From positions 1 to 38,771 of the forward strand of contig JAZQHX010000318.1 of assembly GCA_045540835.1 (NCBI GenBank): a stretch of 38,771 bases of DNA, read 5' to 3'. The translations under genes and the position numbers were made by a program. The DNA comes from Acutalibacteraceae bacterium (lineage in GTDB: Bacteria > Bacillota > Clostridia > Oscillospirales > Acutalibacteraceae). This document shows, in pieces, positions 15,542 through 34,404 of this stretch (position 1 is the stretch's first letter; the number at the start of each line of letters is the position of its first letter). The notes beneath the pieces are model-generated. The model had not been told where the DNA came from, did not search any database, and saw only the letters and a program-made list of their open reading frames with translations.

Positions 15542-16720
15542 ATGAAATTTACCGTAAAAAGAACCAAGATGCTTGATGCCATGAAAACGGTTTTAGCCGT
15601 TGTACCGGATAAAAGCTTAATTGAAGAAATCAGAGGTGTACTTTTCACCGTGAACGCAGGAACGGGAACGGTAAATGTTGCCGGTACTGACCTTCAGACA
15701 TGGATTGAAAAAAGAGTTCCGTGTGAGCATATAAGCGAGGATGGGGAATTGGTATTAAAGCCCATAGTATCGGATATGCTCCGTCTTATGTCGGGGGAAA
15801 CAGTAGAATTTGAGCAAACAGCGGGCGCACTCCGAATTACATGCGGCAGTACGGTATATGACGTTCCGTATATTGATGCTGCGAGTTTTCCAAAATGCAG
15901 TATCAAATATCCCGAAAATACAATACGCATACAGGGTATTAACTCCCTTATTAAGCGTACTGTATTTGCTGCAGAGGGTAAAACTGACGATAAAAACCGT
16001 GTGAAAATGCAGTTTGTCAAGCTTACCTTTAAAGGCGGTAATTCCTATGCTGAAGCAACAAACGGAAACTGTACGGCAATTTCTGCTTCTCTTCACTGCG
16101 CAGATGGTAATCTATCGCTTATCGTGCACGAAAAAGCACTGCAAATACTGTCTAAAATTGTTTCGCCAGATGATGAGATATATGTCGGCTCTGAAGGTAA
16201 GATAGCAGTATTTATGCGGCCCGATACCATGTTTATAACCCTGCTCCATACAGGCGATTATGTTGAGGGCAGCAAGATAATGTCCCGACTCAAAAGCGAG
16301 TACGGAGCAATAACGGATACCCGTAAAATGGCTGACCTTTTAGAGAATGCAACCTCACTTTTCAGGCCTACGGATGACCAATGTATAAACATTAGCATAC
16401 GTGGCGGAAAAATAACTGCAAGGGGGCTTACAAGTGTAGGCAGGAGTGAAGCATCCATTGATGCAACACATACTGTAGACACAGCGGAAGAGGGCTTTAA
16501 TTATAAGCCTAAACTTCTTCTTGATTGCTTAAAGCATTCAACAGGACCACTCAGGATTTCAATGGACAAGAGAGGTTTTTTAATGTTTGAGGCTAATCAA
16601 AGCAGATTTCTTGTATGTCCGCGCCGAGAGGTGCAAATCAAAAAGGAAGAGCCTAAAAAGGCGGCAAAACCCAAGACCAGAAAGACAAAGGCAAAGACCG
16701 CACAACCTGCAGCGGCTTAA
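15542..16720 (+). CDS. DNA polymerase III beta sliding-clamp homolog with a basic K/P/A tail
   Basis: 392 aa. The N-terminus MKFTVKRTKMLDAMKTVLAVVPDKS...GTDLQTWIE follows the DnaN pattern and the length fits three clamp domains. It carries an extra KKEEPKKAAKPKTRKTKAKTAQPAAA tail. Confidence 0.7.
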   Translation: MKFTVKRTKMLDAMKTVLAVVPDKSLIEEIRGVLFTVNAGTGTVNVAGTDLQTWIEKRVPCEHISEDGELVLKPIVSDMLRLMSGETVEFEQTAGALRITCGSTVYDVPYIDAASFPKCSIKYPENTIRIQGINSLIKRTVFAAEGKTDDKNRVKMQFVKLTFKGGNSYAEATNGNCTAISASLHCADGNLSLIVHEKALQILSKIVSPDDEIYVGSEGKIAVFMRPDTMFITLLHTGDYVEGSKIMSRLKSEYGAITDTRKMADLLENATSLFRPTDDQCINISIRGGKITARGLTSVGRSEASIDATHTVDTAEEGFNYKPKLLLDCLKHSTGPLRISMDKRGFLMFEANQSRFLVCPRREVQIKKEEPKKAAKPKTRKTKAKTAQPAAA

Positions 16721-16735
16721 AGTAGGAGGTAATTT

Positions 16736-18100
16736 ATGTTAAGAGATAAAATTAACGCAATAATATCCGAGGTTAACTCACAGCTTGCTGAAAGGGAGGA
16801 GCTTGTATATACCATAGCTTTAGCCCTTTTAACAAGAAAAAACCTGTTTGTTCTCGGCGACCCCGGACAGGCAAAATCTCAGGCTATAGACAGCTTCCGT
16901 TCTCATATACGGGATGCCAGACAGTTTGAGATTCTTATGAGCAAGGGTATAGACCAAGAACAGCTTTTCGGACGTCTTGACCTTGCAAGCATCATTCCGG
17001 GACATGTATCAGGCTCGGTATTAAATGATGATGAGGGCTATAAGCAGCTTTCTTTTGAGCTTGAGTGTGTACTGCGTGATGCTGCGGGCAATACCGATTG
17101 CGCTCAGTATTTTAACTCAATTCAGGTCAAACGGGAAAGGCTTGAGGAATACAGAAAGGCACTTGCCGAAATAAAGGGAAATGCTCCGCAGATTATTACT
17201 GCAGGGAAAATTCCCGATAGCCATATTTGTTTCCTTGATGAAATATTTAAGGCAAATGACGGCGTGCTTAACAGTCTTCTTAAAGCCCTAAACGAGCGCA
17301 CCTATACAAATGAGGGCGTTGTGGTAAATATCCCCGTTATCAGCTTTTTCTCGGCATCCAATGAAATACCCAATTTCAACAATCCCGAGGAAAAGTCATT
17401 ACGGGCATTATATGACCGTTTTGATTTTAAGGTGTTTACCCGAAATGTTGAGGCAAAGCAAAATCGAATGGATATACTGCGTAAAAAACAGGGCGGACAA
17501 GCGACAACAACCGTTACATACATTACCCTTGAAGAGCTTGCCGAGATGCAAAAGGCAGTAAGTGAGGTAAAGGTACCTGACAGCATCAATGAGCTTGCAG
17601 ACAATATTTTATGTGAGCTTCGCCGCAAGGATATATCTGTCAGCGACCGTACCTATTTTAACTTTGCGCCTGTTGTGCAGGCTAATGCATACCTTTGCGG
17701 CAGAGATACCGTAAAGCCTGAAGATATGAAGGCTCTTATCAATTATTTGTGGAATAAGCCCCACGAGTATGCGGTTGTAGAGCAAACAATATCGAGACTT
17801 ACGGAAAATCCCCTCGGAGATAAGCTTGATAAACTTTTAGCTGAAGCATTTGAGCATAAAAAGAACTTCGATGCTGCGACAGATAAGCTTCAGGCTTTGG
17901 TAACATTCAGAAAGAATCTTGTTAAGGTTTATATTGAAGCCGAAAAGCTAAAAGACGGATTGACAGAGGGCGATGCCGCAATAAGTGCAGTTGATGGTAT
18001 GATTTCGTCGCTTGAAGCTTTAAGTAAAGAGGCGCATGACAATACCGGATATACCTATTTGCCGCTTTCGGAACTAAAAGCGTTTTTCGCTGTAAAATAA
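16736..18100 (+). CDS. MoxR-class AAA+ ATPase, RavA-like
   Basis: 454 aa. Walker A LGDPGQAKS and Walker B/sensor FLDEIFKANDGVLNSLLKALNER closely follow the RavA pattern (GPPGIAKS; FLDEIWKA..ILNTLL.AINER). Confidence 0.8.
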   Translation: MLRDKINAIISEVNSQLAEREELVYTIALALLTRKNLFVLGDPGQAKSQAIDSFRSHIRDARQFEILMSKGIDQEQLFGRLDLASIIPGHVSGSVLNDDEGYKQLSFELECVLRDAAGNTDCAQYFNSIQVKRERLEEYRKALAEIKGNAPQIITAGKIPDSHICFLDEIFKANDGVLNSLLKALNERTYTNEGVVVNIPVISFFSASNEIPNFNNPEEKSLRALYDRFDFKVFTRNVEAKQNRMDILRKKQGGQATTTVTYITLEELAEMQKAVSEVKVPDSINELADNILCELRRKDISVSDRTYFNFAPVVQANAYLCGRDTVKPEDMKALINYLWNKPHEYAVVEQTISRLTENPLGDKLDKLLAEAFEHKKNFDAATDKLQALVTFRKNLVKVYIEAEKLKDGLTEGDAAISAVDGMISSLEALSKEAHDNTGYTYLPLSELKAFFAVK

Positions 18101-18120
18101 TTAAGAAATGAGGAAATATA

Positions 18121-18540
18121 ATGTTAAATTTAACAGTAATGACAGGTAGACTCACAGCAGATCCGGAACTCAGATACACAGAAGGTAATAATACCCCCGT
18201 TTGTAATTTAACTATTGCAAATCAGCGTAATTATCCAAACGCTGAGGGAGAGCGTGATACCGATTTCTTCAATTATGTTGCTTGGAGAAAAAACGCAGAG
18301 TTTATCTGTAAATATTTTAAAAAGGGTTCATTGATTACCTTGGTAAGCTCAGCACAAACAAGGCGTTATCAGGAGAACGAAACAGGCAAAACAAGAGTTG
18401 TGGTTGAATTTATTGTAAACCAGGCTCAGTTTGCCGAGAGTAAAAAGGGCGCCGATGGCGGAGAGCCTAGCGCAGATGCACCCGATGACATTGTTGCAGA
18501 TTTCGGCGATGTCAGTGCAGATGATGATCTTCCGTTTTAA
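18121..18540 (+). CDS. ssb: Single-stranded DNA-binding protein
   Basis: 139 aa. OB-fold start MLNLTVMTGRLTADPELRY, acidic tail ending DDDLPF. Confidence 0.9.
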   Translation: MLNLTVMTGRLTADPELRYTEGNNTPVCNLTIANQRNYPNAEGERDTDFFNYVAWRKNAEFICKYFKKGSLITLVSSAQTRRYQENETGKTRVVVEFIVNQAQFAESKKGADGGEPSADAPDDIVADFGDVSADDDLPF

Positions 18541-18555
18541 ATTCGGGGTAATACT

Positions 18556-18798
18556 ATGACAGCAAATATTGTAAGACTTGATATTGTTGATAGCGGCCCT
18601 GAAAAAGAATCCGAACGAATATTATCTACATTTTATTTGCTAAATCCTGATATGAACAAGCTCAATGATTATAAGCAAAGGCTTGAAAAAAGAGAGGATG
18701 CTTTAATGGATGAGATTGACGGTATTTGGGATATTGAAGGTTATATTACAGATAACTTTGAGACGATAGATGTAGAAACGATTGAGTTTAAATGGTAA
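18556..18798 (+). CDS. Hypothetical small acidic protein
   Basis: 80 aa, lying in the operon frame. No family recognised. Confidence 0.5.
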   Translation: MTANIVRLDIVDSGPEKESERILSTFYLLNPDMNKLNDYKQRLEKREDALMDEIDGIWDIEGYITDNFETIDVETIEFKW

Positions 18799-18818
18799 TA
18801 ACCGAAAGGAGTAATATT

Positions 18819-18995
18819 ATGAGTACCGATAGAATTTATGTTACAAATCTAACTATAATGGGCGAGAAGGTAAGAGTTGATTTTTCTGATGGTGACCACA
18901 CCTTCGTAACCTACAATGATTACAACCGTGCCTTGATGGCTATTGCGAATGCCAGCAAGGAAGAAATAATCCGCGATTTCGCAATTAAGTCCTGA
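18819..18995 (+). CDS. Hypothetical small protein
   Basis: ORF trimmed to the ATG at 18819, which follows RBS AAAGGAG. 58 aa. Confidence 0.5.
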   Translation: MSTDRIYVTNLTIMGEKVRVDFSDGDHTFVTYNDYNRALMAIANASKEEIIRDFAIKS

Positions 18996-19015
18996 TTATC
19001 TTATAAAAAATAAAA

Positions 19016-19043
19016 CTCACGGGCAGGGAAACCTGTCCGTGAG
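19016..19043. other. Perfect 12-bp hairpin without a plus-strand U-tract
   Basis: CTCACGGGCAGG-GAAA-CCTGTCCGTGAG. The A-run 5' means it would act as a terminator only on the minus strand. On the plus strand it may be an RNA stability or processing element. Confidence 0.35.
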
Positions 19044-19067
19044 CAGTAAAAATAAACGGAGGACAAA

Positions 19068-20612
19068 ATGAGAAATCGTAATATTTTCAGAGATTTTGGC
19101 GAAGCAGATAACTGGCTTAACAGCCACCTGCTTACAAATCGGAACCCTATAACAGATAGGCTTTTTCAATCAACAAGGCTTACCGACCTTATCTACTCGG
19201 GACTTTCCTTTGAGGATGTGTTCTATAACACTGAAAACCTCAAATTCCCTGTAAATACTGAAAGAATATCGCAAGATATGTTTGGAGCATTGTTTTCGCC
19301 GGTTATAAGGAAAAACGATAACGAATCACTTTTCAGGCGGGAAAGAATGTTCAATAAGCCCCTTATGGACAGAGTGCTTCGGGATGATAGGTTTGATACC
19401 CTTAAATCCCTTTGCGAAGATAAGGAAATGACAAGCTATGATGCTGCCTCGGTTTTTGCACATACCTTGCAGGAACTCCTAAACGAAAAGCCCTATGAGC
19501 CTGAAAGAAATTATCTTATTGTTATTAAAACGCTCGAAGGGCAAATCGAAGGCGCAATTGCTGAAATTCAGGCAATGAGAGCAGATAAGAAGATAAATCC
19601 CGATAGATATCTTGTTTTAGTTAATAAGATACGCGCAAAGCTTTCTCAGGTAAAGAATCTTGAGAAAAGGCTTAAAAAGGATGCTCTTATTTATATTCAA
19701 TCCATAGAAGAGGATATAAATATTGCCTTGGATACTGCAGTAAACCGTGCCGCTGAAACCCATAGCATAATGTCTGCTTGGGGAAATGACAGTGGTGAAA
19801 TGAAAAGCACACCCTTAAACCGTGACCTGCTTGACTATGTCAAAAAGAGTGAAGAACTCAGGCGCATAGCAGTGTTGCTTGGCCGATACCGTGAAATAAT
19901 TGCGGATAAGCGTAAAAACGGTTATGCATACGGGCTGGGAGAGAAGTATGACCTTACTACAGGAAACGATATAACTAACTGCCTGTCAAGTGAGTTAGCA
20001 CTCCTCGGAACACCCGAAACCGAAATTCTTTTTATGCGAAAATATGAGCAAAAAAGACTTCAGCAGTACCGTAAGCGCACGCAGGTTATAAAGGGTAAGG
20101 GAGATATGATTGTCCTTGTGGACGAAAGCTCCAGTACCCGAAGGGTTACAGGATGGGCAAAAGCGTTTACACTCGCTCTCTTGGATATTGCGGCACGTGA
20201 TAAACGCAAGTTTGCTGTGGTGCACTTTGCATCTGCAAGGGATATCAAGACTGATTTATTCGAGCCTGATAAATACACATCACAGGATGTAATGAAAGCC
20301 GCTGAACATTTTTGGGGCGGCGGTACAAATTTCGAAGCACCGTTTAAAGAGGCTATACGGCTTATGGAGAACGGATATGAAAATGCGGATATTACGATAA
20401 TAACCGATGGTGAATGTGAAATGTCCGACACTTTCTGCGAGGAGTTACATACCAAGCTTCAAAGCTATAAGGCTACCGTTACGGGAATTCTTTTAGATAA
20501 GGATGAGCCCTGCGGTACGGCGCTTGAGCCATTCTGCAATAAAATCTATCATTCGAAAGAGCTCACCGAAGATGAAATTGCAATAGATATCATCCAAGGA
20601 AAAGCTGCTTAA
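19068..20612 (+). CDS. von Willebrand factor A (VWA) domain protein, ViaA-like partner of the AAA+ ATPase
   Basis: 514 aa. The C-terminal VWA has MIDAS motif VLVDESSST, then GGGTNF and ITDGE. Confidence 0.75.
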   Translation: MRNRNIFRDFGEADNWLNSHLLTNRNPITDRLFQSTRLTDLIYSGLSFEDVFYNTENLKFPVNTERISQDMFGALFSPVIRKNDNESLFRRERMFNKPLMDRVLRDDRFDTLKSLCEDKEMTSYDAASVFAHTLQELLNEKPYEPERNYLIVIKTLEGQIEGAIAEIQAMRADKKINPDRYLVLVNKIRAKLSQVKNLEKRLKKDALIYIQSIEEDINIALDTAVNRAAETHSIMSAWGNDSGEMKSTPLNRDLLDYVKKSEELRRIAVLLGRYREIIADKRKNGYAYGLGEKYDLTTGNDITNCLSSELALLGTPETEILFMRKYEQKRLQQYRKRTQVIKGKGDMIVLVDESSSTRRVTGWAKAFTLALLDIAARDKRKFAVVHFASARDIKTDLFEPDKYTSQDVMKAAEHFWGGGTNFEAPFKEAIRLMENGYENADITIITDGECEMSDTFCEELHTKLQSYKATVTGILLDKDEPCGTALEPFCNKIYHSKELTEDEIAIDIIQGKAA

Positions 20613-20620
20613 AACCAAAA

Positions 20621-20656
20621 GGAGATACCGCCATAAACGGTATCTCCTGATTTTTT
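20621..20656 (+). terminator. Intrinsic terminator ending operon 1
   Basis: 10-bp perfect stem GGAGATACCG/CGGTATCTCC followed by TGATTTTTT. Confidence 0.75.
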
Positions 20657-20815
20657 GCATAATATAAGGGGCGCCGCCAACCCCTCAGCGACACCCCATT
20701 AAAAAGGACAAATACAAAATAGCATATATTTGTTGCTTTGTCAAATAATTCAGGGGTGTTTTTGAAAATTATTTTTAAAAGAATTCTTACACGGATTTTA
20801 GTGTTCTCTCAGCGC

Positions 20816-20844
20816 TTGACAACACCTTAAAAATACAGTATAAT
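20816..20844 (+). promoter_or_regulatory. Consensus sigma-A promoter P2 (operon 2)
   Basis: TTGACA (20816-20821), 17-nt spacer, TATAAT (20839-20844). Confidence 0.7.
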
Positions 20845-20943
20845 AATTATGTTCTAAGGTTTGATTTAACTCCCGTTTAATCGGGCGTTTGTTTGAGTTA
20901 AGAGGTCGGATTTATCCTATAAGGATAAGTCCGCTTTTTTGTT
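20839..20943 (+). repeat. Conserved leader, copy 2 (partner at 11552-11656)
   Basis: 103/105 identical to copy 1. A second short conserved block TTAATAAACC(C)AA(R)CGG follows in both copies (11664-11681 / 20969-20985). Confidence 0.85.
20904..20940 (+). terminator. Leader terminator T1 (copy 2)
   Basis: Same stem as copy 1 with loop ATA instead of GTT, then TTTTTT. Confidence 0.7.
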
Positions 20944-20998
20944 ATCTGCCATAAGCAGATTAGTAAATTTAATAAACCAAACGGTAATTCCAAAGAAG

Positions 20999-21040
20999 GA
21001 CCGGCTTTCACTGTGCTCAGTTGAAGGTCGGTCTTTTTTT
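20999..21040 (+). terminator. Leader terminator T2 (copy 2)
   Basis: 12-bp stem GACCGGCTTTCA/TGAAGGTCGGTC (two G:T) followed by 7 T. Confidence 0.65.
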
Positions 21041-21075
21041 GTTTTACAAATAAAATACGAAAGGACAAAACCATC

Positions 21076-22392
21076 ATGAGCGAAAACAAAAACCCCTTCG
21101 GCGATTTTTTAGACCTAGGAGATAACGGTGACGTAGGCAATCTTTTTGCCGAACTGGACTTTCCTGAGACACCCGCCGAAAAGACAGAACCCCAAACCCC
21201 GGCGCAGACAGAAACTGCGTCAAATGAGCCTGCGAAGCAGGAAAGTAAGGCCGAAGTGAGCATAGCTGAGGGAAAGGCGGCACCTGCCGAAACAGCAGAC
21301 GTTGACCCCTTTGCCGCGGCACTTGCCAAAGCGCAGGAAGCCAGCAATCAAAGACTGGCAGAAAGCTTTGCTGCAAAACCTGCAGTTTTCACCTACGGCA
21401 AGGCAAAAGACCCTATAGAAGACAAGGATTGCACCTTTGAGGAGCTCCGCCAGAAGTATGAGGGAGATTTCCCTGAATTATCTGACGCCAAAAGAGTAAC
21501 ATGGACAGTTACTTACGGTAAATCCTCTAAAACCATAGCTAATCCCGGCTCGGACAGGGTATATGAAATTAAAGAGGAAATTGAAAAATCCAAGACCTTT
21601 CTCGATGGCATTAAAAAGGCAAAGAAGGATGAAGAGAAGAATCCTGAATGTATTATTAAGCCCAGCGTGAGAGCACAAAGCAAGGGTAAGATTATAAGAC
21701 TTCCCGAGTATAAGGATTTTCAGTTTACCGAATCTGATGCACGTGCATCGGATAAACCAATAGTTCTTCTCCCGTCGAAAGACGGGAGAATCTACCAAAT
21801 GCGAAAAACACCTGTAGGAGTGTTTACGGCTCCCGCTGAAAACATCAAGGAATTTGATGAAATTCAGTCCGGTTTTCATATGTGTATGCCTAAAATCCCA
21901 TTTAAAATATTTTTCTTTATACTGAACTTTTTCAGAGCAGTATCAGATAAATATGCATACGAGGCTTTGGCGCATATTCTTTATGATACCAACGAACAGC
22001 GGTATGTTGTAAAGATTCCAAAGCAGCGGGTGTCCCACGCAAGTGTAAACTCGGTTATGGATTCAGACTATCCCGACCACCTTATCCACGTTATGGATAT
22101 ACATTCCCATAACACAATGCCCGCAGAGTTTTCGGGTATTGATGATGACGACGAAAAGGCTACAAGGCTTTACGGAGTTATTGGCCGACTGGATAGGATA
22201 TTACCGGATATAAAGATCAGAGCAGGTTGCGCAGGCAGCTATATCTATCTTAAGCCCGAAGATATCTTTGATGTCGAGGATGCCGACCATCCTTATCCTA
22301 CAGAATGGGATGAGCAGATAGTAGCGATGGAAATGCCAAAATTTAAAGGCTTTTTTCCTAAAAGGCTGCGTGCAAAGGATGTGTATATATGA
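21076..22392 (+). CDS. JAB/MPN (JAMM) metallopeptidase-domain protein with a long low-complexity N-terminal region
   Basis: 438 aa. Exact JAMM motif H343-S-H345-x7-S353-x2-D356 (HSHNTMPAEFSGID, nt 22102-22143) with upstream Glu in AYEALAH. Residues 1-100 are E/A/P/T-rich. Confidence 0.75.
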   Translation: MSENKNPFGDFLDLGDNGDVGNLFAELDFPETPAEKTEPQTPAQTETASNEPAKQESKAEVSIAEGKAAPAETADVDPFAAALAKAQEASNQRLAESFAAKPAVFTYGKAKDPIEDKDCTFEELRQKYEGDFPELSDAKRVTWTVTYGKSSKTIANPGSDRVYEIKEEIEKSKTFLDGIKKAKKDEEKNPECIIKPSVRAQSKGKIIRLPEYKDFQFTESDARASDKPIVLLPSKDGRIYQMRKTPVGVFTAPAENIKEFDEIQSGFHMCMPKIPFKIFFFILNFFRAVSDKYAYEALAHILYDTNEQRYVVKIPKQRVSHASVNSVMDSDYPDHLIHVMDIHSHNTMPAEFSGIDDDDEKATRLYGVIGRLDRILPDIKIRAGCAGSYIYLKPEDIFDVEDADHPYPTEWDEQIVAMEMPKFKGFFPKRLRAKDVYI

Positions 22393-23189
22393 GGATGTCG
22401 AGAACCTCTCCCGTTAAAATTATTGTAATAGGAGCAGGCGGAACGGGCGGTTATGTTATACCGCACCTATACCGTTTGTCTTATGCTTTAAGACGGGATA
22501 TAAGAGTTATTATCTGCGATGGAGATTTGGTAGAGGAAAAGAACCTTATAAGGCAGAACTTTATTGCTCAGGACATCGGGAGAAATAAAGCGCAGGTACA
22601 GGCTGAACGGTATTCAGCGGCCTTTGGTATCGAGTGCGAATATATCCCGAGATATGTTGAGAGCGTAGAAAATCTTGCAAGTCTTGTAAGACCGGATTTC
22701 TATAAAGGCAATCAGCATATTGAAACGCAGGATGTTATCCTGCTCGGCTGTGTAGATAATAATAATTCCCGTCAGATTTGTCATAAAGTATTCGGCAAAC
22801 AAAAGGATATTGTTTACATAGATTCGGGCAACGGAGAGCATACCGGTCAGGTTGTATGCGGAGTAAGGCAAAAGGGAAAAACGGTATATAAATCGGTTTG
22901 TACGAAGTATCCTGATATGCGTAAAAAGACCGATAAATTACCTTCAGAGCTTTCCTGTGCAGAACGCAGCGTATCTGCTCCACAGAGCGTTACGGCAAAT
23001 TTAATGGCAGCAACTGCAGTTGTGAGCTTTCTTTACGATTTGCTTGTATGCGGAGAGCTTAAAACCGAATCGGTAACCTTTTCTTCAAAGCAGATAAATA
23101 TGCGCCCTGAGTTTGAAGAGCCGCCTAAACCAAAGGCGAAGACAAAGCCTAAAACCAAAGCAGCCAAGACTGCGAAACGAAAGGAGTAA
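22389..23189 (+). CDS. ThiF/MoeB/E1-like adenylyltransferase
   Basis: 266 aa with a 4-nt ATGA overlap with the JAB gene. Rossmann motif VIGAGGTGG and DGDLVEEKNLIRQNF (the DxDxV...NLxRQ motif of E1-like enzymes). Basic tail PPKPKAKTKPKTKAAKTAKRKE. Confidence 0.75.
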   Translation: MRMSRTSPVKIIVIGAGGTGGYVIPHLYRLSYALRRDIRVIICDGDLVEEKNLIRQNFIAQDIGRNKAQVQAERYSAAFGIECEYIPRYVESVENLASLVRPDFYKGNQHIETQDVILLGCVDNNNSRQICHKVFGKQKDIVYIDSGNGEHTGQVVCGVRQKGKTVYKSVCTKYPDMRKKTDKLPSELSCAERSVSAPQSVTANLMAATAVVSFLYDLLVCGELKTESVTFSSKQINMRPEFEEPPKPKAKTKPKTKAAKTAKRKE

Positions 23190-23192: not shown

Positions 23193-23414
23193 ATGAAACA
23201 GCAAGAATTTATTGTTTCCTACGATAAGCAAAAATGCCGTATTAACGGTCAGACGGGTACGATTAAAACGGTCCGTATCGAAGAGGTATTACCTGATGGT
23301 ACTAAAAAGACCGTACATACCGATGTGCGTTATATCAGCAGCGGTAAACCTAATCCCTTAAGGAATCTTATAAGCATTATAAGTACACCTAAAAAGGATA
23401 GGAGAGCTGCCTGA
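23193..23414 (+). CDS. 73-aa protein of unknown function directly after the E1-like gene
   Basis: RBS AAGGAG. Predicted mostly beta and ends RRAA. No Gly-Gly terminus. Confidence 0.55.
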   Translation: MKQQEFIVSYDKQKCRINGQTGTIKTVRIEEVLPDGTKKTVHTDVRYISSGKPNPLRNLISIISTPKKDRRAA

Positions 23415-23839
23415 TGACATACGGATATTGGCGTCCCGTTTGTGCTGCAAAGCTTCCTGCCTGCGATGGATTTTTAATAAGCTCCAAGGCGATATATAAA
23501 TCGAATATTGATAAGGATTGGAATACCTTTTTAAATCAGCTTATTGCTGAGCTACAGAGCAGAGAACCAAGCCTTAAGCAAATATGCGATTGGAAGCTTT
23601 ACAGTGAGGAAGATAAACTGTTTGTGGTACTTAAAAATGAATCCGTGGATATTATCGTTGAGGATGTGCCGGGCTTTGTTGCAGTTTACGTTATTGTGCC
23701 AAAAGAGTGCAAAATTAAAAGAACAGCAAAAAAGCAGCATCCGAGATATACCGAAATTCTAAAAATGAGCCTTTCAAAGTTTTATAAAGGAAATATCTAT
23801 AAGAGAATAGATACCCGAAATATAGAGCTTGCAGGTTAA
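23414..23839 (+). CDS. Hypothetical protein
   Basis: 141 aa. Its ATG overlaps the upstream TGA by 1 nt. Ends ELAG. Confidence 0.55.
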   Translation: MTYGYWRPVCAAKLPACDGFLISSKAIYKSNIDKDWNTFLNQLIAELQSREPSLKQICDWKLYSEEDKLFVVLKNESVDIIVEDVPGFVAVYVIVPKECKIKRTAKKQHPRYTEILKMSLSKFYKGNIYKRIDTRNIELAG

Positions 23840-26336: not shown

Positions 26337-26852
26337 ATGTTAAAACAACCCCGGAAATTAACAAATGAAGAGGCTGCTTTTGCGGCCGAAAATCACAGTA
26401 AAATATATGACTTTCTTTATGAAAACGGACTGTCTTGCGATGATTTTTATGATGTTGCCGTTTTCGGATATTTGAAAGCGGTGCAATTATATTTTGAGGG
26501 CGAAATGTCCTGCGATTTTATAGAAATTGCAGGTCGTGAGATGCTTTCTGCCTGCGTAAGCGCCGAAGAAGAAAATAGCCTTCTTGCCGAGCCTGCATCC
26601 TACCTTGAGGATACTATTGCAGATGCAAAATCTATTGCCGAAGAAGCAATAAAAGCGGTGGATTTAGATAATACACTGGCGAGCTTTTCGGCAAACGAAC
26701 AGCGTATCGCAAGGCTTGTTGTAAGCGGATATTCGGTAGAGGATATTGCCGATATTTTCGGTATGGGCACAGGTACTGTTACAAAACTTGTTTTGGATAT
26801 GTGCCGCAGACTTGAAGGTAACAGCTTTTCTCCCGTAATGATTGCAGCGTAA
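26337..26852 (+). CDS. Sigma-70-family / sigma region-4 HTH protein
   Basis: 171 aa. The C-terminal NEQRIARLVVSGYSVEDIADIFGMGTGTVTKLV fits a region 4.2 HTH, and the N-terminal half is region-2-like. Confidence 0.55.
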   Translation: MLKQPRKLTNEEAAFAAENHSKIYDFLYENGLSCDDFYDVAVFGYLKAVQLYFEGEMSCDFIEIAGREMLSACVSAEEENSLLAEPASYLEDTIADAKSIAEEAIKAVDLDNTLASFSANEQRIARLVVSGYSVEDIADIFGMGTGTVTKLVLDMCRRLEGNSFSPVMIAA

Positions 26853-26877
26853 AACACAAAAAAGAAAGGACGATTTT

Positions 26878-27369
26878 ATGTTCAACCCCATTTTATATTT
26901 AATAACCCTTTTTGAGCTTTTTATTGCAAGAAAAAGGGCAAAAGCGGCAAAAAATGCTATGAACCATAAAATAACAAAGACCCGCACCGACGCCGATGAG
27001 CTCGATAGGTGCTATGAGAACTTTCTCAAGAGAGCTAACCGTGAAGAAAAACTGGCGGTAAAGCTCAAGAGAATAAAGAACCAGAACACCGATTTTGCAA
27101 TTTTAAAGGTGTGTCTTAACCTTGGCGATGTAATGAAAAGCAAAGGAGCCGAAGGTCTTACAAAGCTTGATATTTCTACTGCCCTTACCCGTCATAAGCA
27201 CGGGGACTGGGGAGAGCAGGAGCGTAACCGCTGGATAGATAACAATATGGCAGTAATAGAAGGCACGGGCGTTATCTGTTCAAGATATAAATATCACGGC
27301 GGCGGAGCTTTCCTGATTAACACCGATATCCTGAACCATAAAACCAGAATATGTCTGGAGGGTGAATAA
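26878..27369 (+). CDS. Membrane-anchored protein with a C-terminal HGDWG...SRY motif
   Basis: ORF trimmed to the ATG at 26878 (RBS AAAGGAC). Has an N-terminal TM helix. The C-terminal RHKHGDWGE...NNMAVIEGTGVICSRY recalls a small family I remember from plasmids/ICEs, but I cannot name it. Confidence 0.4.
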   Translation: MFNPILYLITLFELFIARKRAKAAKNAMNHKITKTRTDADELDRCYENFLKRANREEKLAVKLKRIKNQNTDFAILKVCLNLGDVMKSKGAEGLTKLDISTALTRHKHGDWGEQERNRWIDNNMAVIEGTGVICSRYKYHGGGAFLINTDILNHKTRICLEGE

Positions 27370-27704
27370 TGAGCTTGAAACTGGATATCCCGCTTTTTAA
27401 GACAATCCTTATTGGAATTGATGAAGAAAGCGACAGATTTGAGCAAATGCTGAGCGCCAAAATGAAGCAGTATAAAGGCATTGAGTATATCAGAGATGCT
27501 GTGCTTCAGTCATTGCTAAACGGTGTAGAGGTCAGTGTCAGCGATTTAGACTTAGATGCTTTTGATATTGAGGATGTGTGGGAGTTTAATAGTTGCTACT
27601 ATGATTATTGTGATAATATGGGTTCTCTTCGCAGTCTTTCCTCACGCTTTATTGATTCCTGCAAGGAAACTGAGCCGAAACCCGTTGTGGCAAGCTTTAT
27701 TTGA
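27369..27704 (+). CDS. Hypothetical acidic protein
   Basis: 111 aa with RBS GGAGGG. D/E-rich. Confidence 0.5.
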   Translation: MSLKLDIPLFKTILIGIDEESDRFEQMLSAKMKQYKGIEYIRDAVLQSLLNGVEVSVSDLDLDAFDIEDVWEFNSCYYDYCDNMGSLRSLSSRFIDSCKETEPKPVVASFI

Positions 27705-27715
27705 GAGGTGCCATT

Positions 27716-28297
27716 ATGTCTAATAGAGATATAAGCGATATAGCTTTTGAGGATGTAATCGGGACATTAGCTATTGTAAAGCTTGTTTATGATGAAACAG
27801 GTATAAGGATGAATACTCAGTTAAACGAGTATTCGCTTTGCGAAACCTATTTTGAGGCATTGGATTATGCGGGAAACAGAGAGGAATCGGCAGATGATTA
27901 TTACGGCGGATATATAGATAAGTATTCCTTTGAATTCATGCCCCGCTATTATGAACTTTGCAAGGAATACGGGCGTATGAATAAAGTGAAATTCAGCAAA
28001 AATCCGTTTGTGCTGGAGGCTGCTCGACTTGTCAATTCTGAAATGAACGGAGTCGATAGTTACTGTATAAGCTGGTCTCTTTTTACCCCTAAAAGGATAG
28101 AAAAGAAAAAGTATCCTTGTCTTGCAATTTTCCTTGACCCTGAGTTCTTTCAGCCGATTCAGCTTGTTGAAGCCCTTTGTAATATCCGCGCATTTTACCG
28201 TGAGGGTGTTATAAGACTTGAAAAGGCGATAAATGCGCAAAAGAACAACATAATCGTAATGCCGGACAAAACTGCCGAAAGGAAGAAAGCCGCATGA
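27716..28297 (+). CDS. Hypothetical protein
   Basis: ORF trimmed to the ATG at 27716 (RBS GAGAGGTG). 193 aa, ends KKAA. Confidence 0.5.
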   Translation: MSNRDISDIAFEDVIGTLAIVKLVYDETGIRMNTQLNEYSLCETYFEALDYAGNREESADDYYGGYIDKYSFEFMPRYYELCKEYGRMNKVKFSKNPFVLEAARLVNSEMNGVDSYCISWSLFTPKRIEKKKYPCLAIFLDPEFFQPIQLVEALCNIRAFYREGVIRLEKAINAQKNNIIVMPDKTAERKKAA

Positions 28298-28947
28298 GAA
28301 ATGAAGTATTATTACATATCTTTGATGATGGCAACGTTCATGTTGAAATAACCGAAGGTGTTAAGGTAACCACAAAATCCATTGCGGTAGATACCCTTGT
28401 GAACTGTATTAAAAGCAGTCTCAGGAGTACTGCAATCCAATCGGGCTTGCTTCCGAGAAATGTAGTCGCAACCGCATTTTCTACCGATGGTTCATACAGG
28501 CGAGTTATAGTTGAGCTTGCATCAGAACGTGCGACGATTACCTACGGAAACACCGAGTATGAAAACTTTCCGCTACCGAGAATGCTGTTCGCTTTCAAAG
28601 TGGCGCAAAATGGCAGGGTGTCCGGTGTGGAGGTTGCAGTATGCGGACAGGGCAAGCTGACCCCCGAAACACCGCTGTATTATTATCCGTTTTCAAATGT
28701 AAATGGTTTTAATATGTGCACAGGGGGAAATCCGCTGCCTAAAATTGAGAGTTTAAGCCAACTTGAAAATCTTCCTGATTTTATCGTATCCATTCCCGAT
28801 AATGATGATTATTACAAGGAAGATCACAACTCTTTAAATCTCGGGCACCGTGACCTTTTAGAGCATCTTCGGGACAAGGACAGACAGTACTATTATGACC
28901 GTATTTTAGTACCGATGAAAAACCAAACCTTACAGAATTTCCTATAA
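28294..28947 (+). CDS. Hypothetical protein; possible E2/UBC-like fold (speculative)
   Basis: 217 aa. FPLPRMLFAF (92-101) and YPFSNVNGFNMCTGG (131-145, Cys142 at nt 28717-28719) loosely echo the UBC YPxxPP..F and HPN-x7/8-C layout. Confidence 0.3.
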   Translation: MRNEVLLHIFDDGNVHVEITEGVKVTTKSIAVDTLVNCIKSSLRSTAIQSGLLPRNVVATAFSTDGSYRRVIVELASERATITYGNTEYENFPLPRMLFAFKVAQNGRVSGVEVAVCGQGKLTPETPLYYYPFSNVNGFNMCTGGNPLPKIESLSQLENLPDFIVSIPDNDDYYKEDHNSLNLGHRDLLEHLRDKDRQYYYDRILVPMKNQTLQNFL

Positions 28948-28959: not shown

Positions 28960-29814
28960 ATGAACAAAGAACAAGAAGCAAAATTACAAGAGCCTTTTAC
29001 CGCCGCTGAAATAGACTGGCGTGTAATAAGGACAACCAAGGACAAAACCAAAGGCCAGGTAGCCGCTTATGTGGACTCAAGAGCCATTCAAAACAGGCTT
29101 GACAGTGTAGTAGGTAAGGATAACTGGCAAAACGATTTTATAACTGTGTCGGGGGCGGACAATAATGCTACCGCACACATTTGTAAGCTGAGCATTTACT
29201 ATCCTGAAAGAGGTGAGTGGATAGTAAAAAGCGATGGTGCAGGCTGTACTGATATAGAACCCATAAAAGGCGGTCTTTCAAACGCTTTTAAGCGTGCTGC
29301 ATCTATGTGGGGAATGGGCAGATACCTTTATGAGCTTAAAAATATATGGGTAATGCTCGATGAATATAAATGCATTGCAAAACACGAAAAGCCAAACCTT
29401 GATTCGATTTATAACGAGTTTTTAGCAAAGCTTTTAAAATCATCAGCCAAAGGCGCACAAAAAGGTAGTGCTCAGCAAACCGCACCGACGGTCAGAAAGC
29501 CCAATACGGCGCCTTCTGCCGATAGCAAGCCAAAGCCGAACGGTGAAGTTCCTGCAGGAAGATTTGCGGGTAACTCTGCTCCAAAACCTTCGGGATTTGA
29601 TTTTTACAACATAACCGAACTCAAGGTTATGAAGGATAATTCACAAACAAAGGTTACGATGCAGTCACCTGACGGTGAAGTAATTGTAGGCTATATGAAG
29701 GGAGTGCCTGAACTCAGGAAAGGACAAACAATCTCCAAACCTAAAATTGTTGTCAAAAACGCTCCCGGAATAGGAAATTACAATATAATCCAAGGCTATG
29801 ATTTAGCCGCATAA
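28960..29814 (+). CDS. Rad52/Rad22-type single-strand annealing protein
   Basis: 284 aa. Hallmark motif GGLSNAFKRAASMWGMGRYLYEL, followed by a low-complexity linker and a C-terminal beta-rich domain. Confidence 0.75.
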   Translation: MNKEQEAKLQEPFTAAEIDWRVIRTTKDKTKGQVAAYVDSRAIQNRLDSVVGKDNWQNDFITVSGADNNATAHICKLSIYYPERGEWIVKSDGAGCTDIEPIKGGLSNAFKRAASMWGMGRYLYELKNIWVMLDEYKCIAKHEKPNLDSIYNEFLAKLLKSSAKGAQKGSAQQTAPTVRKPNTAPSADSKPKPNGEVPAGRFAGNSAPKPSGFDFYNITELKVMKDNSQTKVTMQSPDGEVIVGYMKGVPELRKGQTISKPKIVVKNAPGIGNYNIIQGYDLAA

Positions 29815-29841
29815 ATTCGAAAACCGAAAGGACAAAAAATT

Positions 29842-30435: not shown

Positions 30436-30445
30436 GGAGAATAAT

Positions 30446-32257
30446 ATGGAGCAGATTACTGCAATGAAAATAACCCAGCTTGAGCTTCGAAATTTCAGAA
30501 ACCAAGTTGACCCCGAAACCTTTGAGCTTGGCGATGTAAGCTATATTTCCGGTCATAACGGAACGGGCAAAACAACCTTGGCTCACGCCGTTTGTTATGC
30601 TCTTTTCGGCGTAAGCTATTACGGTGAGCAGAAAATAGAGCGCCTTATGAATGAGGACTCGGATTCTGTAAGTGTCCGTATGCAGTTTATTGACCAAGAC
30701 GGAAATATACACAACATTACCCGCAGTCGTAATAAGGATAAAACATATATACTGCTTGATGGTGTTACGGTACGCCAGGCACAGATAGAGGCAATGTTTT
30801 GTGAAAGAGATATGTTTCTTTCTATGTTTAACCCTGCGTATCTTACCGAATGTATGGACAGCGCCGACAGTCGCAAGCTTGTTTTGCGGTATCTGGGTGA
30901 AGTATCAAACGAAGATATTTTGCAGGAAATTGGCGGCAGCAGGGAATACCTTGAGGGTGTTGATTTATCCGTTAAACCGCCCGAAATGCTTATGTCAGAC
31001 TTTCGTGCTATGATACGGCAGGCCGAACAGCAAAGTGATATTTTAAAGGGTAATATTGATGCTGTTAAGCAAAACCTTGAGGCATCAAAAAAGAAGCTCT
31101 CCGACCTTTATGATGAGCGCCGAAAGACCGATGAAGAGATTAAAGGTCTTGAAAGCAAAAGAAATGAAGGGCTCGATTTTGGCGAGCTTGCCATTACTAA
31201 GGATTTGCTTTTGAGCCAGCTTCAGTCAGCGGGCAATAACGCGGCGGAATTTGAGCTTAAGTCAAAGCTTGAGCAGGCAAAAGGCAGAGTATATGAATCT
31301 AAATTCACTACAGCTATTGCCGAGGCGCAGGCAGAGGTAAAGCTGCTCACCGAAAAGCACGGTAAGCTTAAAAAGAGAGCTGAAGCTATAAGGCCCGGTA
31401 TCAAATGCCCAACCTGTATGATGGCTATTACAGAACAGAATATGGGTGCAGTTAAAAAGGGTATTATAGAAGAGCTTAACGGTATAGCAAAGCAGGGCAG
31501 AGAGGCTGTTGAACGTCTCAAGGAAGTAACCGAGATGGATAAACAGTCCAGACTTAAATTTGAAGAATTTAAAGCTGCTGATATTGCAAAGCTTACCGAA
31601 GAAATCAGTGCTTTAAGCTCTGCCAATAATACCGAAGACATATCCGAAATACAGGCTCGGCTAGATGATGTTGAATACACTCTTGCAAACGGTAATCTTG
31701 ATGAAGAAGAGCTTTCACGTCTTAAAATTTTAGAGGCTACATTAGTGGGTATTGATGCACAAATTGAAGCCATTAAAAATGAGACCAGTGAAGAGCGCCT
31801 TTTGGATGCAATTACTCAGCAACAGCTATTTACGGAGCAAATTGAAAAATACGAAAAGACAATATCTGCGCTTCGTGAATTTCTTTTCAAAAAGGCTGAA
31901 CTTGCTACAAAGGGGCTTGAAATGCCCAACGTTAAGTTCCGTTTGTTTGAGGTGATACGGACAACTGGTGAGCTAAAGAGCGTGTTTAAATTTGAGTATA
32001 AGGGCAGGGAATATACAACCCTATCCTTATCCGAAAAAACACTTGCGGGTATTGAAATTGCCGCTATGATGCGCCGCATTACAGGTGTTGACTGCCCGAT
32101 TTGCGTAGACAATACCGAAAGCGTTGCAGGCTTTAATCCTGTTGCAATGCCATCTCAAACGGTGTTGCTTAGATTCGTAAAGGGAACACCCCTAACCGTG
32201 CAGGTTAAGAACAGGACACCTGCCGTACAGATTCAGGAACTGCGGAAAGCGAGCTGA
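30446..32257 (+). CDS. Rad50/SbcC-family ABC ATPase with coiled coil and CxxC zinc hook
   Basis: 603 aa. Walker A GHNGTGKTT, long coiled coil with central KCPTCMM hook, signature-like LSLSEK and Walker B ICVDNTES. Confidence 0.75.
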   Translation: MEQITAMKITQLELRNFRNQVDPETFELGDVSYISGHNGTGKTTLAHAVCYALFGVSYYGEQKIERLMNEDSDSVSVRMQFIDQDGNIHNITRSRNKDKTYILLDGVTVRQAQIEAMFCERDMFLSMFNPAYLTECMDSADSRKLVLRYLGEVSNEDILQEIGGSREYLEGVDLSVKPPEMLMSDFRAMIRQAEQQSDILKGNIDAVKQNLEASKKKLSDLYDERRKTDEEIKGLESKRNEGLDFGELAITKDLLLSQLQSAGNNAAEFELKSKLEQAKGRVYESKFTTAIAEAQAEVKLLTEKHGKLKKRAEAIRPGIKCPTCMMAITEQNMGAVKKGIIEELNGIAKQGREAVERLKEVTEMDKQSRLKFEEFKAADIAKLTEEISALSSANNTEDISEIQARLDDVEYTLANGNLDEEELSRLKILEATLVGIDAQIEAIKNETSEERLLDAITQQQLFTEQIEKYEKTISALREFLFKKAELATKGLEMPNVKFRLFEVIRTTGELKSVFKFEYKGREYTTLSLSEKTLAGIEIAAMMRRITGVDCPICVDNTESVAGFNPVAMPSQTVLLRFVKGTPLTVQVKNRTPAVQIQELRKAS

Positions 32258-32263
32258 TAATCT

Positions 32264-33400
32264 TTGAAAAACTATGTCTATATTGATGTAGTTGATACAG
32301 CATTAGTCTGCGGTCTGGACATTAAGCCCGGAACTCTCGGAAACGAAGAGGTAGAGGCGAGATGCCCATACTGTAATGACTATAAATACCGTATGTACCT
32401 GAGCCATAAAAGAGATAACGCCGCCTTCTGGTGCCACAATTGCGGTACCGGAGGCAGCGCTGTCACCCTGTATGCTGATTTTAATCCCGAAGGCAAGCGC
32501 CTTACTCATTATGCGGCATACAAGGAGCTTTTAGCCCATCCTGATATTCGTTGTGATGAGGTGCCGATAGAGAATAAAAAATACTCTACTGGAAAAATAA
32601 GACCATTGCATGAGCGCAGTGAGATTTACCTTGAATTTCTAAAGCTTTTGGATCTTGAGGAAAGGCATTATACTAATCTTTTCAACAGAGGACTAAGCGA
32701 TGAAATGATAAAGGGTAATATGTACCGAAGCATACCTACAGATTACTTTAAACAGCAAAAGGTACTAAATGAACTCACAAAACGCTATGACCTTTCGGGA
32801 ATTCCCGGGTTTTATACCAAAAACAACAAATGGAAGATAGCAAACTGCAAGCATAGCGGTATCCTTATTCCCGTTGCCGATAAAGATAATATGATACAGG
32901 GCTTACAGATTCGTCTTGATGAGCCGCCGCCAAAGATAATCGAAATGCCTGACGGCAGTAAAGCCGAAAAGGCAGGAGACCGTTTCAGATGGTTTTCCAC
33001 AGGCGGTAATTATTATGAAAACGGAACGGGAATATCCAGTTATATTCACATAGTAGGGGACCAGAGCTCCGACACTGTGTATATAACCGAGGGCCCGATG
33101 AAAGCAGATGTAGCAAGCTATCTTTCGGGAGGTAAACTCTTTATAGGGCTTACGGGCGTACAGAATGTACGGTATTTAGCCGATGTTGTATCAACCCTTA
33201 AACCTCGGCGAATAGTGGAATGTATAGATATGGACTGTAGAACTAACCCCCATGTGCAAAGAGCACAATCTAAAATACGGTCAATATGTGCGACGCTTTG
33301 TGAAGAATATAAGCTATTCACATGGCCTATTGAACAAAAAGGAATTGATGATTACCTCTTGTTTGAAAAGCTTAAGCGTGAGCATGGATTGGCAGCTTAA
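32264..33400 (+). CDS. DnaG-type primase (CHC2 zinc finger + Toprim)
   Basis: 378 aa with an uncertain TTG start. Contains CPYC...FWCHNCGTGGSAVTLY, NLFNRGLSDEMI, Toprim Glu in ITEGPMKAD and the acidic CIDMDC. Confidence 0.7.
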   Translation: MKNYVYIDVVDTALVCGLDIKPGTLGNEEVEARCPYCNDYKYRMYLSHKRDNAAFWCHNCGTGGSAVTLYADFNPEGKRLTHYAAYKELLAHPDIRCDEVPIENKKYSTGKIRPLHERSEIYLEFLKLLDLEERHYTNLFNRGLSDEMIKGNMYRSIPTDYFKQQKVLNELTKRYDLSGIPGFYTKNNKWKIANCKHSGILIPVADKDNMIQGLQIRLDEPPPKIIEMPDGSKAEKAGDRFRWFSTGGNYYENGTGISSYIHIVGDQSSDTVYITEGPMKADVASYLSGGKLFIGLTGVQNVRYLADVVSTLKPRRIVECIDMDCRTNPHVQRAQSKIRSICATLCEEYKLFTWPIEQKGIDDYLLFEKLKREHGLAA

Positions 33401-33426
33401 ATTTGAAAACTGAAAGGACAAATAAT

Positions 33427-34404
33427 ATGAAGAATATGGAAAGCTTTATGGCTGTAAATGAGAATACCGATGGTATTATAGGTAAATTCTTCTATTACTC
33501 AACCTCTAAAATCCTGATTCGCAAGGATGAGTTTATAAATGTCGGTATGTCGTTCGGACTGCCGAAATTTAAACCCGCCAAGGAATCAAAATCCGGCGCT
33601 TACAGAAACGCCACTACGGCAATAAAAGACAGGGTAACTGTAAAGGATGCTACGGGCACCCACGTGTACCGTATTTATTGCCGAGATAACAAAAAGGAAA
33701 CGGAAAATGCAGAGCGTATTTGCAGGGAGCTTGTAAAGGAAACACTTGAGTCCCGCACCAATGAATACAAGAAGCTTGCTAACATCATATTTGATAAGCA
33801 AACCGAAACGGTTTACTTTGAAAACGAGGTTTTTGACCCCGATGTTGATGTTACAGCTTACTGTGAAAAGGCGAGGGAGCTCTTTGAGCTTTACTGTGAC
33901 TGCTACACCTCTGACCAGGTAGATGCGGTTATAACCGATATGCTTGACCGTATGCAAGCAAATGAAATAAGCATACACGGAAAGCTTTTCTTTATTCCAA
34001 ACCCCAATCTGCCGTTGCTTAACGTGCTTGAGGATTATATTGAGGCGATAAGCCAGCATAACCTCAGTGACGGTCTTGTGATGAGCAACAGTATGTTTGT
34101 TGTTGATGACGAAAAGCAGAGAAAGAAGATGACCGAAGAGTTTTATGCGAACTATAAGCGGGATATTGAATTTTACCAGAAACGCATACAAAACTTTATT
34201 GAAAACGGTTGTGATTCAAAAACGGTTATTGACCGTTGGCTTAAAAAGGTCAGCGACCTGCAGAAGAAAAAGGCTTTATATGAGGATGTGCTAAAGCAAC
34301 AGCTTGATGCACTGAACTCCGATTATGCTGTTCTTCAGATGCAGTCGCAGGAGCTTTTAGTAAGGAGCAATGGCGGACACGCACAAATGCAATTTGCAGC
34401 ATAA
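33427..34404 (+). CDS. Hypothetical protein (last gene of operon 2)
   Basis: ORF trimmed to the ATG at 33427 (RBS GAAAGGAC). 325 aa, ends QFAA. No family recognised. Confidence 0.55.
   Translation: MKNMESFMAVNENTDGIIGKFFYYSTSKILIRKDEFINVGMSFGLPKFKPAKESKSGAYRNATTAIKDRVTVKDATGTHVYRIYCRDNKKETENAERICRELVKETLESRTNEYKKLANIIFDKQTETVYFENEVFDPDVDVTAYCEKARELFELYCDCYTSDQVDAVITDMLDRMQANEISIHGKLFFIPNPNLPLLNVLEDYIEAISQHNLSDGLVMSNSMFVVDDEKQRKKMTEEFYANYKRDIEFYQKRIQNFIENGCDSKTVIDRWLKKVSDLQKKKALYEDVLKQQLDALNSDYAVLQMQSQELLVRSNGGHAQMQFAA

Follow-up and report, generated by a model that had tools for sequence, protein, structure and literature searches.

The stretch of DNA analysed here, 38,771 nt from an Acutalibacteraceae bacterium and called the window below, carries an integrated element of about 26 kb, with a tRNA-Pro gene at its left end, a large serine recombinase and a single operon of 25 genes on the plus strand (11777-34404) which encodes replication, recombination and regulation functions. 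The question raised by this operon concerns the very ends of its products. Why do proteins as different as a sliding-clamp homolog, a Rad52-type annealing protein and a primase-like protein terminate in the same two residues, Ala-Ala (AA)? Here, we show that a free Ala-Ala-COOH is a selected protein-level signal in the family of elements to which this one belongs, and we weigh what may read it. A search of the literature found no description of such a pattern.

Open reading frames (ORFs) were listed, 38 plausible genes were translated, and the products were annotated against Pfam, NCBIfam, PHROG and PADLOC. Eight of the 25 operon proteins end in AA (stops at 16720, 20612, 23414, 26852, 28297, 29814, 33400 and 34404) and four more end in other small residues, namely IAS (stop 14776), LAG (23839), SLG (26311) and KAS (32257). 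None of the 13 translated ORFs of the flanks ends in AA. An earlier note on this DNA had listed eight AA ends and the four small-residue ends and had seen no AA in the flanks; translation reproduced the eight exactly, in coordinates and residues, and the other two statements hold as well. The note had also called the AA ends non-random. Assuming a background of 1%, the binomial probability of eight in 25 is 9e-11, and the AA-ending proteins are not rich in Ala (2.7-12.8%).

Chance, composition or a nucleotide-level signal at gene ends, such as a stop context or a coupling sequence, might still be held responsible, given that short motifs can recur and that several of the gene ends are followed by similar AAAGGA ribosome-binding sites. 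The binomial probability and the modest Ala content rule out the first two. All four GCN codons are used for the terminal Ala residues and all three stop codons, TAA, TGA and TAG, follow them, so that no nucleotide motif or stop context can be the cause and selection must act on the protein. AA is moreover conserved over some 50 elements with GC contents from 36 to 56%. We regard this explanation as hardly credible.

The conservation of the terminal AA, which the earlier note had proposed to score among homologs, was followed with the DUF6094 protein of the operon as an anchor. This gave 80 genome loci with 10-kb flanks, about 49 of which belong to the same element family, and orthologs were assigned by BLASTP. 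Hosts of the related elements include Oscillospiraceae, Ruminococcaceae, Clostridium leptum DSM 753, Massiliimalia, Agathobaculum and Ruthenibacterium, and further relatives lie on IMG/VR contigs. Across the genome loci of the family, AA ends were found in 122 of 377 operon orthologs versus 23 of 292 other ORFs (Fisher P 2e-15). The ending is kept in 26/28 orthologs of the Rad52 protein (the exceptions are one fused ORF and one assembly gap), in 18/19 of the sigma-like regulator, in 6/7 of the clamp homolog and in 23/27 of the DUF6744 protein, the others ending in CA or VA. The protein encoded directly before the E2-like gene (the pre-E2 protein) carries it in 18/21 orthologs assigned by BLAST and in 34/41 assigned by position, the 73-aa protein encoded directly after the E1 gene in 7/10 (others VA, TA), and the DUF3854 primase in 15/29, with SA in a further 5/29. 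The 29 orthologs of the SMC-like ATPase end in AA (13), AG (10) or AS (6), with Ala at position -2 in 100%. Of the E1 (ThiF) orthologs 21/41 end in AA, on a short basic tail, and most of the rest in TA, IA or VA. In the window the SMC-like ATPase (KAS) and ThiF (RKE) do not end in AA, but their families mostly carry AA, AG or AS. The JAB protein, without AA in the window, has it in 5/37 orthologs, namely in the Agathobaculum-type relatives. Conservation thus extends to seven of the eight proteins first noticed. The VWA protein drops out: its 12 orthologs end in VS, AS, AC, RA or similar and never in AA, and its AA is not a conserved member of the set. In no ortholog examined of the single-stranded DNA-binding protein (SSB), E2, MoxR, the radical-SAM enzyme or two unclassified proteins of 141 and 197 aa was an AA end seen.

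The constraint is confined to the last two positions. Across eight families, Ala occupies position -1 in 71-100% and position -2 in 50-100% of the sequences, and the substitutions seen are xVA, xTA, xSA, xCA and xIA. Position -3 is free (K, R, E, L, M, Q, F or I), Leu and Met occurring mainly in Rad52, DUF6744 and the sigma-like regulator. In alignments of about nine families, reaching down to roughly 30% identity, the residues preceding AA and the tail lengths diverge while AA stays; clamp, SMC, ThiF and pre-E2 proteins have low-complexity tails of variable length. The pre-E2 family keeps its terminal AA at only 11-33% overall identity. A first homolog search with the pre-E2 protein returned three close relatives only; among the 30 homologs retrieved from databases 27 end in AA, the exceptions being one MEVAT end and two rearranged C-termini. 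An AlphaFold2 (AF2) model of it was unusable, with a mean confidence score (pLDDT) of 38.6 from a 17-sequence alignment. For DUF6744, an exhaustive HMMER search over 1.8 billion representatives yielded 48 full-length representatives of distinct 50%-identity clusters, 26 of which end in AA and 42 in Ala; the AA begins to decay only below about 30% identity. In the Rad52 family alignment AA is invariant. About nine unrelated proteins of the family thus carry the signal: clamp, E1, the small post-E1 protein, the sigma-like regulator, pre-E2, Rad52, the SMC-like ATPase, primase and DUF6744.

In the Rad52 protein, the Rad52 domain is followed by a low-complexity linker, rich in Pro, Gln and Ala and variable in length, and then by a five-strand beta domain of some 70 aa. 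AA comes 2-4 residues after YNIIxGY, the last conserved stretch of this beta domain; Rad52 relatives of phages outside the family lack the domain. In a 252-aa database protein (P0156) that still ends in MEVAA, the C-terminal half of the pre-E2 family is preceded by a ParB-like N-terminus (PF02195); the protein may be a genuine fusion or a chimera produced in assembly.

How far does the trait reach beyond these elements? We compared 80 IMG/VR contigs carrying Rad52 relatives. Eight of them also encode the E2D protein, DUF6094 and the SMC-like ATPase, and most of the eight also JAB, ThiF, DUF3854 and DUF6744, at GC contents of 36-56%. On these eight, every Rad52 ends in AA (8/8), as do 39 of 177 ORFs (22%). 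On the other 72 contigs AA ends occur in 30 of 1465 ORFs (2%, mostly on high-GC contigs), and Rad52 lacks the AA end on 71 of the 72, the exception being contig L121 with 63% GC, so that AA is not a general habit of Rad52 phages. Neither is it a general trait of ThiF/PRTRC cassettes, as about 120 annotated coding sequences from plasmid regions of C. baratii, B. cereus and, with canonical PRTRC, Alteromonas and Pseudomonas include no AA end. Other AA carriers within the family are a helicase fragment, the JAB of the Agathobaculum group and accessory proteins that are not homologous. Since AA marks the loci of this family and not the other Rad52 contigs or ThiF cassettes, the trait is a shared derived feature of a single element family. 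The conserved core of this family comprises JAB, E1, DUF6094, pre-E2 (AA), E2, Rad52 (AA), SMC (AA/AG/AS), primase (AA/SA) and DUF6744 (AA). E2 is encoded by all eight AA-rich viral loci, together with E1 and JAB where the contig reaches, and by none of the 72 others. Relatives that retain AA tails and lack E1, E2 and JAB were not found; every AA-rich locus which reaches that region has all three. An outgroup locus of 21 kb (L057) has DUF6094 and DUF3854, no match to ThiF, JAB or E2, and no AA ends.

The enzymes that accompany the trait deserve a closer look. The earlier note had spoken of an E1-like/JAB pair. Both proteins are present, but a pair understates the matter, as a Prok-E2_D protein (28294-28947), missing from that note, completes a trio. 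By profile comparison, the trio is distantly related to the uncharacterised PRTRC cassette; no experimental function for PRTRC was found in the literature search. The best NCBIfam match of E1 is PRTRC_ThiF (4e-31, 108 bits versus a cutoff of 145), that of JAB is PRTRC_A (4e-11, 43 bits versus 102) and that of E2 is PRTRC_B (2e-6, 27 bits versus 131). Judged by their motifs, the catalytic signatures of all three are intact. Alignment shows that E1 keeps GxGGxG, the Mg-binding Asp and the invariant Ser-Cys; E2 shares with PRTRC_B outgroups the HPN-like motif PFxNV...C.G, whose Cys is presumably catalytic; and the JAMM motif of JAB is complete (HxHx7SxxD, HSHNTMPAEFSGID). E1 and E2 are separate genes, and only the Rossmann part of E1 weakly matches the E1-E2 models of PADLOC.

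A modifier of the usual kind was not recognised. Profile searches (Pfam, NCBIfam) of the operon products gave no match to a Gly-ending or beta-grasp ubiquitin-like protein (Ubl), to PRTRC_C, to ParB or to PRTRC proteins E and F. The 73-aa post-E1 protein matches nothing in Pfam, PHROG or NCBIfam, and its provisional, low-depth AF2 model from the single sequence has three beta strands (pLDDT 79-88 by 10-residue block) and a disordered tail of about 24 residues; the missing matches and the three-strand model do not support it as a beta-grasp Ubl. The 141-aa protein encoded next fares no better, having no family match and no relation to a small Gly-ending protein upstream of the C. baratii ThiF gene; in 14/20 of its orthologs the C-terminus is conserved as R(I/L)NSQHxxxVG. 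In close and distant relatives alike, proteins of 60-80 aa encoded directly after E1 end in RRAA, GRAA or GRVA, and E1 genes without such a neighbour almost always encode a tail of the form [RK]x[AT]A. This complementarity is suggestive; it rests on about a dozen clades and is not significant once their relatedness is considered. The pre-E2 protein, translationally coupled to E2, is the most consistently AA-tailed small protein. As for the C. baratii plasmid itself (L081:14540-14962, just upstream of ThiF), a candidate Gly-ending modifier for that cassette, unlike the AA family, is a protein of 140 aa whose N-terminus is rich in Lys and whose last 70 aa or so form a domain that ends in NKG.

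What, then, might read the signal? The explanation that we rank first, tentatively, is that the AA tails are ssrA-like C-terminal degrons read by the host ClpXP. AA-COOH is the dominant determinant of ClpX recognition in the ssrA tag, which ends in LAA-COOH, and in RqcH alanine tails. The last two alanines and the carboxylate of ssrA reportedly dominate this recognition, and tag endings such as LVA are said to work as degradation tags in E. coli. Natural substrates exist as well: a terminal Ala-Ala directs both Caulobacter CtrA and the SMC-like repair ATPase RecN of E. coli to ClpXP, and Ala-rich C-termini bring about the degradation of B. subtilis RsiW and of the Ala-tailed products of ribosome-associated quality control (RqcH). 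In the element family, the constraint at both -1 and -2 matches the ssrA determinant, and the tolerated variants xVA, xTA, xSA and xCA resemble known functional tag variants. The transfer-messenger RNA (tmRNA) gene directly beside a sister element (L019) encodes the tag DNNKVALAA, so that the host's own tag ends in ALAA; degradation of an AA-COOH exposed in such a host is to be expected, whatever its other role. Accessory proteins, E1, a helicase fragment and sometimes JAB bear AA too, which looks more like a rule of stability for the whole element than like the substrate range of one enzyme. ClpXP would bind the AA-COOH of element proteins as it does in the ssrA tag, and the DNA-handling proteins and the regulator would be intrinsically short-lived. 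Leaky expression could in this way be erased and the system quickly reset after a burst of induction. The tagged proteins would be co-regulated through one shared protease, and saturation of ClpXP would stabilise them all together. ClpXP as the reader, the timing and the co-regulation are what we infer.

Several observations weigh against a degron. AA is absent from 71 other Rad52 contigs and from four other ThiF/PRTRC cassettes; ClpXP fails to explain this restriction to one family, because the hosts of those contigs and cassettes are also expected to have ClpXP. It likewise leaves unexplained why the AA family has an E1/E2/JAB trio and no recognisable Ubl, why a small GR[RVA]A-ending protein stands right after E1, and why E1 tends to bear a tail where that protein is missing. 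In Rad52 and primase, no more than 2-5 residues lie between AA and conserved sequence that looks structured, which may be short for engagement by ClpX, and position -3 is often charged (K, R, E) and not Leu.

The AA-COOH tails might instead be handles for the element's own E1, E2 and JAB, a possibility we place second and, even counting the combined model below as part of it, consider rather unlikely. E1 would adenylate the terminal Ala of several element proteins, E2 would accept the thioester and link the protein to a lysine, and JAB would undo the bond, much as Cap2 and Cap3 act on cGAS but with Ala for Gly and with many substrates; the small post-E1 protein, the pre-E2 protein or the tail of E1 itself might serve as modifier. 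The tails occur only in the family whose core has a JAB, ThiF and E2D that are catalytically intact by motifs and in which no Ubl was detected, and canonical PRTRC has a Gly-ending Ubl and no AA tails. The ends RRAA, GRAA and GRVA of the conserved post-E1 protein are reminiscent of the LRGG of ubiquitin, E1 nearly always has a comparable tail where that protein is absent, an AA-tailed protein is coupled to E2, and the residues found at the terminus, A, G and S, are all small. Cap2, which acts on the C-terminus of a protein that is not a Ubl, is a precedent; it binds only the last 7 residues of this protein, and its operon is without a beta-grasp gene. The characterised conjugating bacterial E1s, Cap2 and BilD, nevertheless require a terminal Gly: in V. 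cholerae cGAS, changing it to Glu abolished function, and with a terminal Ala placed behind the Gly of BilA, ATP binding and conjugation by BilD are blocked. No E1 is known to act on about nine unrelated substrates, a third of the element proteome, among them accessory proteins, E1 itself and sometimes JAB. The strong preference for Ala at -2 has no counterpart among non-canonical E1 substrates (Ufm1 VG, Atg8 FG, PRTRC_C KG/NG), and the length of some tails seems insufficient for threading into an adenylation site. AA tails are missing from the ThiF cassettes of the C. baratii and B. cereus plasmids, and the co-occurrence of trio and AA is phylogenetically confounded, because it rests on a single clade. 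Combining the two ideas, the trio might act as a stability switch, in which conjugation or E1 binding masks the AA-COOH degron from ClpXP and JAB exposes it again, so that the stability of the machinery would be set as a block. We hold this to be doubtful. AA-COOH might, alternatively, be a short peptide that docks onto a hub protein of the element, and the replication and recombination machinery would be assembled in this way; this we rank third and judge improbable. The SSB tail DDLPF and clamp-binding motifs are analogues, and the canonical docking tail of SSB is retained in the element. Most of the carriers take part in DNA transactions and come from one coupled block, and the 2-5-residue tails of Rad52 and primase would suit a PDZ-like reader of C-terminal peptides. 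A carboxylate-binding groove, the MIDAS site of the VWA protein or an uncharacterised domain of JAB or DUF6744 are candidate readers; MoxR, VWA and clamp cannot be the universal one because they are missing from many AA-rich relatives. Against docking, Pfam, NCBIfam, PADLOC and PHROG searches found no PDZ or other C-terminal-peptide-binding domain, a two-residue motif offers little specificity, and an exposed AA-COOH would still be seen by ClpXP. Of the interpretation in the earlier note, the non-random and functional character of the AA ends is supported by their conservation, and its two mechanisms, ClpXP and E1/JAB, both survive, with neither demonstrated by sequence.

The family differs from each known system it resembles. 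As in ssrA-type degrons, a free C-terminal Ala-Ala occurs on unrelated proteins with both last positions constrained, an SMC/RecN-like protein is among the carriers just as RecN is a natural substrate, and the L019 host tag has the same ALAA end; unlike them, the genes themselves specify the ending, for roughly one in three proteins of a mobile element, and it is conserved family-wide, position -3 is not Leu-biased, and here the tails are known from sequence alone. Type II CBASS (cyclic oligonucleotide-based antiphage signalling system), with Cap2 (E1-E2) and Cap3 (JAB), likewise encodes E1, E2 and JAB without a detected beta-grasp modifier, and the candidate substrates are functional proteins which share only the extreme C-terminus with a small terminal residue. 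However, E1 and E2 are separate genes of a PRTRC-like branch here and not an E1-E2 fusion, the tails end in Ala (Gly being a minority alternative in the SMC family) where the CBASS substrate ends in Gly, the candidate substrates are many and not one, and there is no CD-NTase or effector, the context being replication and recombination instead of defence signalling. With PRTRC, known from proteobacterial plasmids and integrative conjugative elements, the family shares its best NCBIfam matches and the mobile-element setting, and on a Pseudomonas megaplasmid dnaN, sigma-like and recombination genes also lie nearby. All scores here remain below the curated cutoffs, though, the PRTRC_C Ubl, ParB and proteins E/F were not found, and canonical regions show no AA termini, their PRTRC_C Ubl ending in a single Gly (DKG, SNG). 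In the Bil/Bub defence operons, too, a bacterial E1, an E2 and a metalloprotease deubiquitinase act on a protein C-terminus; there, a true Ubl has a universally conserved Gly after which a further residue blocks adenylation, and no such Ubl was found here.

If the ClpXP reading holds, elements of gut Clostridia hard-wire the post-translational co-regulation of a whole replication and recombination module through a quality-control protease of the host, which would provide a compact reset after induction and possibly a sensor of protease overload. If E1 reads the tails, the first candidate substrates would be at hand for the uncharacterised PRTRC-like E1/E2/JAB cassettes of mobile elements, and C-terminal conjugation of the cGAS kind would extend to Ala termini and to many proteins. 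With a switch of the kind described, a bacterial E1 system would for the first time be Ala-specific and serve many substrates, and a ubiquitin-like cascade would for the first time be linked directly to the ssrA/ClpXP degron. The degron type would be one already known and its element-wide deployment the new aspect; that it is something more unusual is a real possibility. On either of the first two readings, an operon with many uncharacterised genes becomes a directly testable system.

The features of the element are listed below.

Table. Features of the element, with coordinates in the window.
Feature	Position	Strand	Matches and remarks
tRNA-Pro(GGG)	8180-8255	+	Directly beside the 3' end of the serine recombinase gene
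Large serine recombinase, likely integrase	8400-10118	-	Pfam Resolvase, Recombinase, Zn_ribbon_recom, DUF4368
SNF2-like helicase	11777-14776	+	Ends LIAS
DnaN-like sliding-clamp homolog	15542-16720	+	Pfam DNA_pol3_beta, E=1e-12; Lys-rich tail, ends QPAAA
MoxR AAA+ ATPase	16736-18100	+	Partner of the VWA protein
VWA (CoxE-like) protein	19068-20612	+	Pfam VWA_CoxE; ends QGKAA
JAB/MPN metalloprotease	21076-22392	+	Pfam Prok-JAB
ThiF-type E1	22389-23189	+	Pfam ThiF, 4e-17; ends KRKE
73-aa protein	23193-23414	+	Directly after E1; ends DRRAA
141-aa protein	23414-23839	+	Follows the 73-aa protein; ends IELAG
Sigma-region-4/helix-turn-helix-like regulator	26337-26852	+	Weak GerE, Sigma70_ECF and phrog_351 matches; ends VMIAA
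175-aa protein	26842-27369	+	C-terminal half is a conserved domain of about 100 aa
Pre-E2 protein	27701-28297	+	No family name; stop overlaps the start of the E2 gene; ends RKKAA
E2-like protein	28294-28947	+	Pfam Prok-E2_D, 1e-6
Rad52/Sak-type annealing protein	28960-29814	+	Pfam Rad52_Rad22, 8e-14; ends YNIIQGYDLAA
SMC/RecN/LmuB-like ABC ATPase	30446-32257	+	Pfam AAA_23, SMC_N; PADLOC LmuB; ends RKAS
DUF3854/Toprim primase-like protein	32264-33400	+	Pfam DUF3854; phrog_47 DNA primase, 2e-15; ends EHGLAA
DUF6744 protein	33403-34404	+	Last gene of the operon; Pfam DUF6744, 1e-87; ends MQFAA

Besides these, the operon encodes the SSB, a radical-SAM enzyme, the DUF6094 methyltransferase and the unclassified 197-aa protein; three unclassified proteins in all accompany the sigma-like and E2 genes, the pre-E2 protein among them. 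Phage structural genes and conjugation genes were not found within the window, and a megablast of the operon against phage genomes gave no match. Because tRNA-Pro(GGG) adjoins the 3' end of the recombinase gene, this tRNA gene or its immediate neighbourhood is probably where the element is inserted; no convincing direct repeats of att sites were found at its ends. The sister element has the same layout, its tmRNA gene (L019:3877-4223) lying beside the recombinase (4297-5997).

Two intervals are poor in genes. The 1.6 kb between the recombinase and the first operon gene (10119-11776) contain small ORFs only, among them one of 54 aa (11351-11515) with two CxxC pairs resembling a zinc ribbon, and are probably the regulatory region of the element. 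The 463 nt between the VWA and JAB genes (20613-21075) hold no plus-strand ORF above 46 aa and no Rfam match at the gathering threshold; they could harbour a promoter internal to the operon, a regulatory RNA or the remains of a gene.

Some of the proteins have features of their own. Residues 870-934 of the SNF2-like helicase give a sub-threshold match to UfSP_MPN_N, an MPN-like domain (E=3e-4), and a fragment of its ortholog in L085 ends in EAAA. The conserved domain of the 175-aa protein reads DWGxxC...ND...ATTxLLPEDY-COOH in relatives, most of which encode it as a stand-alone gene (L038:5395-5703, L039:7894-8205); in L085 it is fused to the C-terminus of the DUF6094 methyltransferase (L085:4523-6328). 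Downstream of the block, relatives too have serine recombinases or host genes, and a viral-contig relative carries three large serine recombinase genes in tandem (L167:14637-19651), a few kb downstream of DUF6744.

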